Source: an uncultured Rickettsiales bacterium
Lineage (GTDB): Bacteria > Pseudomonadota > Alphaproteobacteria > Rickettsiales > CAZAGG01
Assembly (NCBI GenBank): GCA_964484565.1
Contig: CAZAGG010000004.1
Span: 73,246 to 137,245, forward strand
Direction of reading: 5' to 3'
DNA length: 64,000 nt
This document shows, in pieces, positions 7,546-9,848 of this stretch. The notes below the pieces were generated by a model. The model worked only from the letters and a program-made list of their open reading frames with translations. It had not been told where the DNA came from and made no database searches. The translations under genes and the position numbers were made by a program. The number at the start of each line of letters is the position of its first letter. Position 1 is the first letter of the stretch.

Positions 7546-7566
7546 TTTTTACTCCATTGTTTGTTA

Positions 7567-7602
7567 GTCAGAGACCAGTAGCCAGAGGCCAGAGGCCAGT
7601 AG
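7567..7602. repeat. left inverted-repeat arm flanking the four-helix-bundle gene (heptamer NNNCCAG units)
   Basis: GTCAGAGACCAGTAGCCAGAGGCCAGAGGCCAGTAG. It matches the reverse complement of 7980-8012 (GTCAGAGACCAGAGACCAGTAGCCAGAGGCCAG) in blocks of 12 and 14 nt, with one 7-nt unit slipped in each arm. Confidence 0.9.
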
Positions 7603-7620
7603 TTAGTAGGTTAATAAGTT

Positions 7621-8022
7621 TTATAACTTACTTTTTAAAGAGTTTATCATTTTTCCAATCTCAGATAATTCATTAAGAATGGAATCAGTTTTTATTTTAT
7701 CAGACAATCCCAGCTCTACAGAGAGCATTAATTGAGTTTCTAACTCTGATAATGATCCTAAAGCTATAGTCAGAAATTGTTTGAATTCTTTACTTCCCCT
7801 CTCATGCCCTTCTGCGATATTTGAAGGAATTGAAACAGCACAGCGTTTAATCTGAGAAGTTAGCCCATAAAGCTCTTCTTTGGGAAAACTCGCCGCCAGT
7901 ATATAGATGTCAGCAACAGCTTTAAAAGATCTTTGCCATATTAACAACTCTTTATAGCTTCTTACAAAGTTTCTATTTTCTGGCCTCTGGCTACTGGTCT
8001 CTGGTCTCTGACTTACTGACAT
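7621..8022 (-). CDS. four-helix-bundle protein (23S rRNA intervening-sequence protein family; TIGR02436/PF05635-like)
   Basis: [71 protein letters not shown] matches the family hallmark pattern (W-Q, [30 protein letters not shown].T). Both candidate ATGs (8022 and 8031) lie inside the last codons of nrdA. The N-terminal [12 protein letters not shown] is encoded by the right repeat arm. Confidence 0.85.
   Translation of the reverse strand: [133 protein letters not shown]
7980..8012. repeat. right inverted-repeat arm flanking the four-helix-bundle gene
   Basis: CTGGCCTCTGGCTACTGGTCTCTGGTCTCTGAC. It ends 1 nt before the nrdA stop codon (8013-8015) and is translated as the N-terminus of the bundle protein. 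Confidence 0.9.
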
Positions 8023-9848
8023 GACAGGCATTCTTCATAATTATTAGAATTACCACCCCCCACATCAGCGTAATCACCTATTGGACGGTTTTTCTTAGCA
8101 ATCAGTGACATTTCAAGCTGAAGTGGTTGCTCGATATCATGTGAAACTTTCTCAGCTCGCTGAATTGAAGTAGAGCGACAGTAATAAAGGCTTTTCAACC
8201 CCTTCTTCCATGCATCAAAATGCAGACGATGCAAGTCGCGTTTATGTATGGTCGGAGACACGAAAAGATTAACAGATTGAGCCTGACAAATATAAGGCTG
8301 CCTATCAACTGCGTGTTCAACAACCCACCTTTGATCCATCTCAGGAGCGGTTTTGAATATCATTTTTTCATGCTCACTCAAGAAATCAAGATGCTGAACT
8401 GAACCCTCATTGGTAGAGATAGAAGACCAAATTTCATCAGTGTTCATTCCCTTTGATTCAAGAAGTTCCGCAAGATGTTTATTGCGAACTACAAAAGAAC
8501 CTGTAAGCGTTTTTTGAACAAAAACGTTAGCTGCATATGGCTCAATTCCAGGTGAAGAATTACCCGCAATAATTGATATGGAAGCAGTCGGCGCGATAGC
8601 CATCTTATTAGAGAAACGTTCCATAACGCCACACTCTGCCGCATCAGGGCAAGCACCGCGCTCTTCTGCAAGTTTAACTGACGCCCCATCGACTTTTTCT
8701 TTGATGTTGGCAAATATCTTCTTATTCCACACCTTTGCCATGACAGATTCGAAGGGAATATTTTTCTCTTGAAGATATGAGTGAAAGCCCATAACACCAA
8801 GACCAACACTACGCTCACGCATTGCAGAATATTTAGCGCGACGCATTGAATCAGGAGCTTTATCTATAAAATCTTGTAAAACGTTATCAAGAAATCGCAT
8901 AACATCTTCAATGAACTGCGGTTCATCTTTCCACTCATCATAATATTCAAGATTGAGTGAGGATAGACAACAAACCGCCGTGCGCTCAACCCCAAGATGA
9001 TCAGCCCCTGTTGGCAGTGTAATTTCACTGCAAAGATTTGAGGTTTTGACCGTAAGACCTAGCTGTTTGTGATGTTCAGGAATAGCTTTATTAACATTAT
9101 CAATAAATAAAATGTATGGTTCACCAGTCTCAACCCTTGCTGTAAGAAGCCTTATCCATATAGCTCTTGCAGGCATTTCACTCATTACAGAGCCATCTTT
9201 AGGGCTTTTTAGCTGCCACATTTCATCTTTCTCAACAGCTTCCATAAATGCATCGGTTACTGCAACACCATGATGAAGATTCAATGTTTTACGGTTAGGA
9301 TCACCACCTGTGGGGCGACGCATATCCATAAATTCTTCGATTTCAGGGTGATCAATCTGCAAATAAACCGCAGCACTGCCACGACGCAAACTACCTTGCG
9401 AAATTGCATTGGTTTGTGAATCAAAGACTTTTAGAAACGGCATTATTCCAGTTGTTTTGCCATTTTTACCTACTTTTTCACCAATTGAGCGAACTCTGCC
9501 GTAAAATGTACCTATCCCTCCGCCACGAGCGGCAAGCCAAACGTTTTCGTTCCAGTTATCAACTATTCCATCTAGGCTATCGCTAACTTCATTGAGGAAG
9601 CAAGAAATAGGTAAACCCCTATTAGTTCCACCATTTGATAAAACGGGCGTTGCAGGCATAAACCACAATTTGCTTATATAGTCATATAGCCTACCTGCAT
9701 GTTCTGCATCGTCAGCATAATATCCAGCAACTCGCGCAAAAAGACTCTGAAAATCTTCATCTGGCAAAAGATAACGGTCTGCTAAAACTGCTTTACCGAA
9801 ATCGCTGAGTCGATTATCTCGCTCATAATTTACAGCCAATTCATACAT
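8013..9848 (-). CDS. nrdA: ribonucleotide-diphosphate reductase alpha subunit (class Ia R1, short form with no evident ATP-cone)
   Basis: Has the catalytic context SNLCSEITLP and the C-terminal redox tail ECLSCQ. The N-terminus (MYELAVNYERDNRLSDFGKAVLADRYLL) shows no VIKRDG-type ATP-cone. ATG 9848 is preferred over TTG 9863 because GGGGA lies about 9 nt upstream of it. Confidence 0.93.
   Translation of the reverse strand: MYELAVNYERDNRLSDFGKAVLADRYLLPDEDFQSLFARVAGYYADDAEHAGRLYDYISKLWFMPATPVLSNGGTNRGLPISCFLNEVSDSLDGIVDNWNENVWLAARGGGIGTFYGRVRSIGEKVGKNGKTTGIMPFLKVFDSQTNAISQGSLRRGSAAVYLQIDHPEIEEFMDMRRPTGGDPNRKTLNLHHGVAVTDAFMEAVEKDEMWQLKSPKDGSVMSEMPARAIWIRLLTARVETGEPYILFIDNVNKAIPEHHKQLGLTVKTSNLCSEITLPTGADHLGVERTAVCCLSSLNLEYYDEWKDEPQFIEDVMRFLDNVLQDFIDKAPDSMRRAKYSAMRERSVGLGVMGFHSYLQEKNIPFESVMAKVWNKKIFANIKEKVDGASVKLAEERGACPDAAECGVMERFSNKMAIAPTASISIIAGNSSPGIEPYAANVFVQKTLTGSFVVRNKHLAELLESKGMNTDEIWSSISTNEGSVQHLDFLSEHEKMIFKTAPEMDQRWVVEHAVDRQPYICQAQSVNLFVSPTIHKRDLHRLHFDAWKKGLKSLYYCRSTSIQRAEKVSHDIEQPLQLEMSLIAKKNRPIGDYADVGGGNSNNYEECLSCQ

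Follow-up and report, generated by a model that had tools for sequence, protein, structure and literature searches.

A four-helix-bundle gene between heptamer-built inverted repeats, resembling the intervening sequences of 23S rRNA genes, in the nrdA-nrdB spacer of an uncultured Rickettsiales bacterium

The genes nrdA and nrdB, which encode the alpha and beta subunits of ribonucleotide reductase (RNR), are separated by a spacer of 467 nucleotides (nt; 7546-8012, minus strand) in the window analyzed here, a stretch of 64,000 nt from contig CAZAGG010000004.1 of an uncultured Rickettsiales bacterium. A preliminary description made from the letters alone had noted that this spacer is filled by an open reading frame (ORF) of the four-helix-bundle family bracketed by inverted heptamer repeats, and had likened the assembly to the intervening sequences (IVSs) of 23S rRNA genes. 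We recovered this layout at the same positions, with the right arm abutting the nrdA stop codon and the left arm lying between the stop codon of the bundle gene and the Shine-Dalgarno sequence of nrdB. Judged by its sequence, the cassette is of the IVS type, as its size (446 nt, alongside 469 nt and approximately 430 nt for rRNA elements of Azospirillum and Coxiella), arm length, heptamer type, and ORF family agree with those of IVSs. Among the 80 closest metagenomic relatives of the bundle protein, a position between co-oriented cistrons is the rule and not an oddity of RNR operons. The most likely account of the locus, which we consider reasonably probable, is that an IVS-type cassette is transcribed by read-through of the operon and that its stem is cut by RNase III. 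The features on which the argument turns are listed in the order of transcription.

8013-9863, minus strand: nrdA, class I ribonucleotide reductase alpha subunit (PF02867/PF00317; NF006577, 1012 bits)
8031-8029 and 8022-8020, minus strand: two ATG codons in frame with the bundle gene, within the last nrdA codons and outside the cassette
8015-8013, minus strand: nrdA stop codon TAA, read from the sequence
7567-8012, minus strand: whole cassette of 446 nt (5' arm, four-helix-bundle gene, 3' arm), delimited by the outer arm ends
7979-8013, minus strand: 5' arm, which reads GT-CAGAGAC-CAGAGAC-CAGTAGC-CAGAGGC-CAGA on the transcript strand and follows the nrdA stop immediately
7621-8031, minus strand: four-helix-bundle ORF of 136 amino acids (aa) (PF05635, TIGR02436, 2GSC)
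7624-7977, minus strand: conserved domain of the bundle ORF, followed by the stop codon at 7623-7621
7947-7945, minus strand: in-frame TTG at codon 29, the only alternative start inside the cassette, giving a 108-aa product that still covers TIGR02436
7566-7602, minus strand: 3' arm, which reads CTACTGG-CCTCTGG-CCTCTGG-CTACTGG-TCTCTGAC on the transcript strand and is the complementary partner of the 5' arm
7555-7552, minus strand: nrdB Shine-Dalgarno sequence GGAG, 6 nt 5' of the ATG and 10 nt past the last paired base of the stem
6586-7545, minus strand: nrdB, ribonucleotide reductase beta subunit (PF00268; NF007186)

The NrdA C-terminus (CLSCQ) is complete, and in alignments it coincides with the C-terminal end of the homologues, at residue 616 in relatives. 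We placed the cassette boundaries at the outer ends of the arms, the points at which homology breaks at the level of the family. The whole locus, including the bundle protein, is identical in the independent public assembly SRR12997673. The GC content of the cassette core is 33%, compared with 41-43% in nrdA and nrdB.

Tandem Repeats Finder resolved the arms into two period-7 arrays, one at 7569-7599 with 4.4 copies of CAGAGGC and the other at 7979-8010 with 4.6 copies, which are mutually inverted and composed of CAGNNNN-type heptamers. The sequence CCAGNNNCCAGNNNCCAG occurs four times in the window, always within the arms, when the expectation from 100 shuffles is zero. The arms match somewhat better than the complementarity of 12 + 14 nt around slipped 7-nt units that was originally reported, since a perfect 25-nt inverted repeat joins 7569-7593 to 7979-8003 when the register is shifted by 7 nt. 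In phase, 8013-7980 is predicted to pair with 7566-7599 as a stem of approximately 31 bp, in blocks of 13, 2, 4, and 12 bp. The long terminal stem anticipated for the transcript is clearly predicted: the 501-nt minus-strand segment 7540-8040 folds with z = -6.0, none of 100 shuffled sequences folding as well, and within a context of 1101 nt (7250-8350) the probability of arm-arm pairing is 0.96-1.0 at every arm position. The base of the stem pairs the final nucleotide of the nrdA stop (8013) with 7566, 10 nt ahead of the GGAG, and the predicted pairing bears out the suggestion that the stem would bring the 3' end of nrdA close to the 5' end of nrdB. No further multi-copy heptamer array is present elsewhere in the 64-kb window, which also contains no rRNA (Rfam) and no tRNA.

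The assignment of the encoded protein to the four-helix-bundle family, proposed from sequence motifs that are all present in ORF 7621-8031, is confirmed over the full length by profile searches. PF05635 matches with E = 1.3e-36 and 125.5 bits (cut-off 33.8), TIGR02436 from residue 31 with E = 7e-36 and 122.7 bits (cut-off 24), and NF008911 with 138.2 bits (cut-off 137), and the pentameric four-helix-bundle protein XCC0516 (PDB 2GSC) is homologous to the window protein at 1e-21. A link to Avd had also been put forward; the relationship is real and distant (PHROG 3206 'Avd', 1e-9), but it falls below the thresholds of both Avd models, with 27.2 bits against a cut-off of 40 for PF22296 (bAvd) and 31.8 bits against 80 for NF033474 (Avd). 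The window protein is thus a full-length TIGR02436/PF05635 member that is only distantly Avd-like. No reverse transcriptase and no template or variable repeats adjoin the bundle gene, whose neighbors are nrdA and nrdB and whose sole accompanying repeats are the heptamer arms. A paralogue of the gene was not detected in the 64-kb window by tblastn, no phage record with a homologue was found, and membership in a defense system was discarded as a candidate when PADLOC returned no match.

For 30 years IVSs have been regarded as a peculiarity of rRNA genes; ORF-bearing 23S IVSs occur in Leptospira as well as in Coxiella. The IVS of Coxiella burnetii is 428-444 nt in length with a terminal stem of 28 bp, and its 5' arm consists of two to three tandem GACAGAT heptamers and one degenerate unit, the copy number differing between strains (PMC4990558). 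Cleavage by RNase III occurs at the first repeat, as shown in vitro with ends determined by RACE (rapid amplification of cDNA ends), and the S23p ORF is probably untranslated, its ribosome-binding site having been removed (PMC4990558). The window cassette and the Coxiella IVS are alike in their length of approximately 430-450 nt, the PF05635-family ORF in the loop, a stem of approximately 28-31 bp, CAGA-containing tandem heptamers in the 5' arm (GACAGAT in Coxiella, CAGAGAC/CAGAGGC in the window), a GC content below that of the host, a sporadic distribution, and translation signals of the ORF that are either weak or located beyond the segment to be excised. In contrast, the Coxiella element interrupts helix 45 of 23S rRNA and has been demonstrated to be excised by RNase III, whereas the window element resides between two protein-coding cistrons.

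A further rRNA counterpart emerged from a tblastn search of plasmids, in which an unannotated stretch of plasmid AZO_p2 of Azospirillum lipoferum 4B (NC_016586.1) was found to contain a homologue of the bundle gene. The element is 469 nt long (L162:2945-3413) and lies inside a large subunit (LSU) rRNA gene (Rfam match 1792-4990), with arms of 36 nt (2945-2980 and 3378-3413) that are 86% complementary. Both this IVS and the window cassette come from Alphaproteobacteria and have approximately 400 nt between their arms, and their bundle ORFs are 35% identical. Their arms are nearly the same at the beginnings and endings (TCAGAG... ...CAGAAA), the AZO_p2 arm reading CAGAGGA-CGGATGA-CAGAGGA-CGGAGGA-CAGAAAG and that of the window CAGAGAC-CAGAGAC-CAGTAGC-CAGAGGC-CAGAAAA; the elements differ in that the former sits inside an LSU rRNA gene and not in an mRNA spacer. 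The window element accordingly has the bundle ORF in the loop, the long terminal stem, the tandem-heptamer arms, and the sporadic distribution of an IVS, and departs from that class in location, which for IVSs is within a helix of 23S rRNA (9, 25, or 45) and here is between nrdA and nrdB. The IVS-type identity suggested for this bundle gene and its long heptamer-built inverted repeats is therefore supported, for an element housed in an mRNA operon.

We then compared the window cassette with the metagenomic loci of the closest relatives of its protein (80 loci, 45-60% identity), 65 of which had full flanks and could be assessed for arm complementarity. The 5' and 3' flanks of the same locus are complementary (score at least 14) in 47 of these 65, as opposed to 5 of 195 comparisons between loci, and autocorrelation peaks at lags of 7 and 14 in both flanks. 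After phasing, the heptamer units approximate YAG-K-R-N-N, with the A present in 85% and the G in 96% of units, and G exceeds C in the 5' arm of 44 of 47 cassettes (46 metagenomic loci and the window), the reverse never being observed. Pairing, period, and strand polarity are thus kept while the arm sequence varies, a pattern that fits a constraint acting on a single strand, namely RNA.

The placement of the cassettes is similarly constrained. The upstream gene is co-oriented with the cassette in 56 of 60 loci (those with one callable flank included) and both neighbors are co-oriented in 37 of the 47 cases in which both can be called (46 metagenomic loci and the window), with no case of a divergent upstream gene combined with a co-oriented downstream gene. 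The distance from the upstream stop codon to the first arm base has a median of 2 nt (interquartile range (IQR) -9 to +6) and that from the last arm base to the downstream start a median of 20 nt (IQR 7-30), a geometry matched by the window with 0-9 and 20-23 nt, respectively. Host contexts assigned with Pfam comprise cysD-cysN, sdhA-sdhB, nuoG-nuoH, carA-carB, and X-lpxI, three cassettes are found between co-oriented tRNA genes (L089, with tRNAs at 467-540 and 995-1067, L094, and L099), and none of the 20 metagenomic loci checked with Rfam lies in rRNA. The preliminary description had noted no known account of the arrangement for RNR operons; the cassette does reside in nrdAB, but the cysDN, sdhAB, carAB, nuoGH, and tRNA contexts show that it is not peculiar to them. 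Taken across the approximately 80 relatives, the data suggest that such cassettes commonly ride in ordinary operons and not only in rRNA. We also note that tRNA operons form a second stable-RNA niche of the cassettes besides 23S rRNA.

Two pairs of cassettes are approximately 88% identical and occupy different contexts, L106 (upstream of a recN-like gene) with L156 (upstream of a hisC-like gene, both neighbors being named from N-terminal sequence) and L101 with L111. Homology in both pairs begins and ends at the outer arm ends, and this confinement indicates that the arms and ORF move as one unit.

Comparison of nrdB loci likewise points to an insertion, as had been proposed for the window. 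We examined 80 loci of the closest NrdB relatives in species-representative genomes (76-83% identity) from Rickettsiales, Rhodospirillales, and other Alphaproteobacteria, with nrdA upstream in 62 of them and with metagenome-assembled genomes of Rickettsiales and Rhodospirillales providing the best matches. A homologue of the bundle gene is present in none of the 80, and the nrdA-nrdB spacers of the 62 range from 16 nt to 3.7 kb, many of them being 16-50 nt. The cassette is absent from all relatives examined, which amount to approximately 65 alphaproteobacterial nrdA-nrdB spacers with that of the closest relative included, and is not universally conserved. Once 7567-8012 and one TAA are removed, the window reads TGTCAG-TAA-CAAACAATGGAGTAAAAA-ATG, which is a normal spacer of 21 nt (TAA and 18 nt containing the GGAG) ahead of the nrdB ATG and resembles those of the AT-rich relatives L014, L020, and L031. 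The exact empty site was not found in the nearest NrdB relatives (84-88% identical), of which L165 and L170 harbor an unrelated occupant and L167 and L171 differ in gene order, and short spacers of 16-44 nt were seen only in more distant relatives. The closest relative, L165 (NrdB 88% identical), has the order CN-hydrolase / nrdA / X / nrdB as in the window, X being an unrelated 129-aa ORF without arms. The best explanation is that the cassette was acquired horizontally and inserted precisely after the nrdA stop codon and ahead of the ribosome-binding site of nrdB.

Independently of the cassette, the alphaproteobacterial nrdA-nrdB spacer is a hotspot for unrelated small inserts (L007:5805-6000, L021:5360-6000, L170:1-132, L001, L005, L165:3625-4014, L017, and L080:5618-6000). 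The occupants include lysine/alanine-rich mini-ORFs (AKKPAKKAAKK...) and ORFs of 129-166 aa without known identity. The spacer ORF of L017 resembles an acetyltransferase, as read from sequence only, and the spacer of L080 holds an AT-rich segment with a GC-rich inverted repeat of approximately 40 nt at its bounds.

In the account that we favor, the cassette would be transcribed as part of the nrdA-nrdB mRNA by read-through from nrdA. Such co-transcription is probable because the cassette shows no promoter or terminator signal: a scan of the nrdA-nrdB spacer found no promoter signal above shuffled expectation and no terminator-like site, and a promoter or terminator of its own was rejected on these grounds. 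The heptamer arms would pair in the transcript, the stem of approximately 31 bp looping out a gene-bearing interior of approximately 380 nt and, in the predicted fold, setting the nrdA stop codon approximately 10 nt from the nrdB Shine-Dalgarno sequence. Judging from the rRNA IVSs, host RNase III would most likely cut the stem and release the cassette RNA, leaving separate nrdA and nrdB mRNAs with intact coding regions, and the insertion would thereby be nearly harmless to an essential operon. RNase III sites between the cistrons of polycistronic mRNAs, as in the early region of phage T7, yield separate translatable mRNAs. The T7 sites and the window have in common a stem between two cistrons, with cleavage in the window argued by analogy, and the T7 sites differ in being short local hairpins with no enclosed gene and no mobile cassette. 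Probably through a cut by RNase III, as in the homologous rRNA elements, or at least through looping out of the insert, the stem would render the insertion tolerable. The bundle protein would be made only from the uncut transcript, with translation starting at the internal TTG or, through coupling, at the AUG overlapping the nrdA end.

The start of the bundle gene had been placed inside nrdA. An ATG is indeed found there, and the codons at 8031-8029 and 8022-8020 are the only canonical starts 5' of the bundle domain, but neither is probably the ancestral start, as homologues have their start just within the 5' arm, 3-6 residues ahead of the conserved SYK(D/E)L. Both ATGs lie beyond this arm and translation from either must consequently read across it, the frame running through the arm to give a translated heptamer peptide. 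Translation could proceed from these ATGs by termination-reinitiation through the arm, could begin at the TTG (7947), or may not take place.

Several observations weigh against cleavage and expression as just outlined. By inspection of the sequence, the window has no start codon at the position usual for the family, and because this codon is missing the bundle protein may not be made in the window, as has been argued for Coxiella. Cleavage by RNase III, although most likely, is drawn by analogy from the rRNA IVSs only. A signature-motif search detected no RNase III gene (rnc) in the 64-kb window, a result uninformative for the genome as a whole, and a consistent target-site duplication is absent across the cassettes surveyed. 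Finally, eight cassettes (L083, L086, L093, L097, L110, L113, L124, and L127) reside inside a long ORF for an Eco57I/MmeI-type (BREX PglX-like) methyltransferase, just upstream of the methyltransferase domain (L086:1420-5343, with the cassette at approximately 2451-2874). In all eight, the frame of the host ORF (+2 with respect to the bundle gene) contains no stop codon across the whole cassette, as against 2-7 stops in that frame of other cassettes of similar GC content. Since the host frame is open through the cassette, the uncut mRNA must be translated there, and cleavage is not complete or universal. The open methyltransferase frame has the appearance of dual coding or of selection keeping the host ORF open. 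An in-frame fusion of the bundle protein with the methyltransferase was considered and rejected, as start and stop codons of its own delimit the bundle ORF, and the host is read in another frame.

These embedded copies bear directly on a different reading, in which the stem forms and remains uncut. Its role would be topological, delivering ribosomes that leave nrdA to the nrdB Shine-Dalgarno sequence and so coupling the two genes and setting alpha:beta stoichiometry, or it would provide a folding-dependent gate on nrdB translation. We hold this reading to be doubtful, though it is the main rival. The open-frame copies indicate that uncut RNA is used in some contexts, and the contact between the nrdA stop (8013) and 7566, 10 nt before the GGAG, leaves a virtual spacer equal to the 16-44-nt spacers of relatives. 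The family-wide geometry, with approximately 2 nt from stop to arm and approximately 20 nt from arm to start, is in line with such a role, as is the finding that many of the host operons carry the genes for a pair of subunits of the same enzyme. Nevertheless, a near-perfect duplex of approximately 31 bp with a perfect 25-bp alternative register is, by established knowledge, a standard RNase III substrate, no sequence feature shields the stem from cleavage, and the homologous rRNA elements are cleaved (PMC4990558).

The sharp boundaries at the arm ends, the near-identical cassettes in different contexts, the absence from relatives, and the terminal inverted repeats themselves would also be expected of a DNA transposon or miniature inverted-repeat transposable element (MITE) moved in trans, for which the RNA stem would be incidental and the bundle gene a passenger. 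We judge this improbable. The window copy has TAA on both sides (TAA|cassette|TAA), but 47 cassettes (46 metagenomic and the window) show no consistent target-site duplication, lengths of 0, 1, 2, 3, and 6 nt being seen in 24, 13, 6, 3, and 1 of them, respectively, and none occurs in the near-identical pairs L106/L156 and L101/L111; the TAA pair is probably a coincidence. The arm sequences are locus-specific, which makes a shared transposase site unlikely, the cassette encodes no transposase, and co-orientation in 56 of 60 loci together with the fixed excess of G over C in the 5' arm is unexpected for a symmetric DNA element. It is very improbable that the bundle protein is a domesticated RNR accessory factor whose repeats only tune expression. 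The ORF lies inside an RNR operon and is intact at 33% GC with a full-length match to the family models, yet none of the other nrdAB loci examined has it, the ancestral start codon has been lost from it, and cassettes of the same type occur in operons unrelated to RNR as well as in genes for rRNA and tRNA.

A broader proposal, which we offer as rather improbable, extends the RNase III account to the entire family: the bundle-cassettes would constitute a widespread undescribed class of operon hitchhikers, of which the 23S IVSs are only the first-noticed niche. Such elements would insert at stop/ribosome-binding-site junctions of conserved, highly transcribed operons, and even into ORFs whose frame stays open, and would be neutralized by a stem that RNase III can cut. 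Movement would perhaps proceed via the excised stem-loop RNA, bound by the element's own Avd-like pentameric protein, and an RNA-level mobility intermediate may exist by analogy with Avd and its reverse transcriptases.

The literature searched, which did not include most subscription journals, yielded no account of an IVS-type cassette in an mRNA operon, nor of bundle genes flanked by heptamer arms outside rRNA, and an earlier description is possible. The window locus and its relatives place the IVS type of element in mRNA operons, with heptamer arms like those of rRNA IVSs, and the strict placement and host-following orientation make the IVS problem tractable. For the source genome, they imply that expression of NrdA and NrdB runs through a foreign RNA structure.

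The arms have consequences for annotation as well, as gene callers extend family members into them (P0010, P0025, P0029, P0032, P0048, P0074, P0084, and P0093) and mistake the arms for odd peptide repeats at the N- or C-terminus. The translated heptamers take forms such as GQRPEARGQ, PPTNHxSPPTxH, and SPLATRHSPLSSRAH; these arm-derived repeats are artefacts of annotation by which the cassettes can be recognized. More than half of the heptamer units in 5' arms begin with TAG and, as 7 is not divisible by 3, a run of three TAG units gives a stop in all three frames. Cassettes that need the host ORF to be read through carry AAG or CAG units instead of TAG. Stops in all frames might be the rationale for a period of 7, which is speculative.

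Plasmid-borne homologues of the bundle protein are mostly cyanobacterial (Nostoc, Calothrix, and others). On plasmid gamma of Nostoc sp. PCC 7120 (L163:2860-2930), CTTCTGC/CCTCTGC heptamers, similar to cyanobacterial STRR units, lie 3' of the gene, and the 5' side adjoins an ISL3 transposase. The short tandemly repeated repetitive (STRR) heptamers of cyanobacteria are dispersed period-7 repeats such as CCCCAGT and are not paired arms around a gene. Period-7 tandem units are common to STRRs and cassettes, and several cassette arms, such as that of L160 (CCAGTCCCCAGTCCCC), are of the CCCCAGT type; a published link between STRRs and bundle genes was not found in the literature searched.

Two NrdB homologues from short ENA contigs, P0123 (448 aa) and P0124 (379 aa; approximately 63% local identity) (L164), display internal duplications of approximately 60-130 residues, which are probably assembly artefacts. 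Directly downstream of nrdB in the window, on the opposite (plus) strand, lie two large ORFs at 3524-5026 (500 aa) and 5116-6354 (412 aa).

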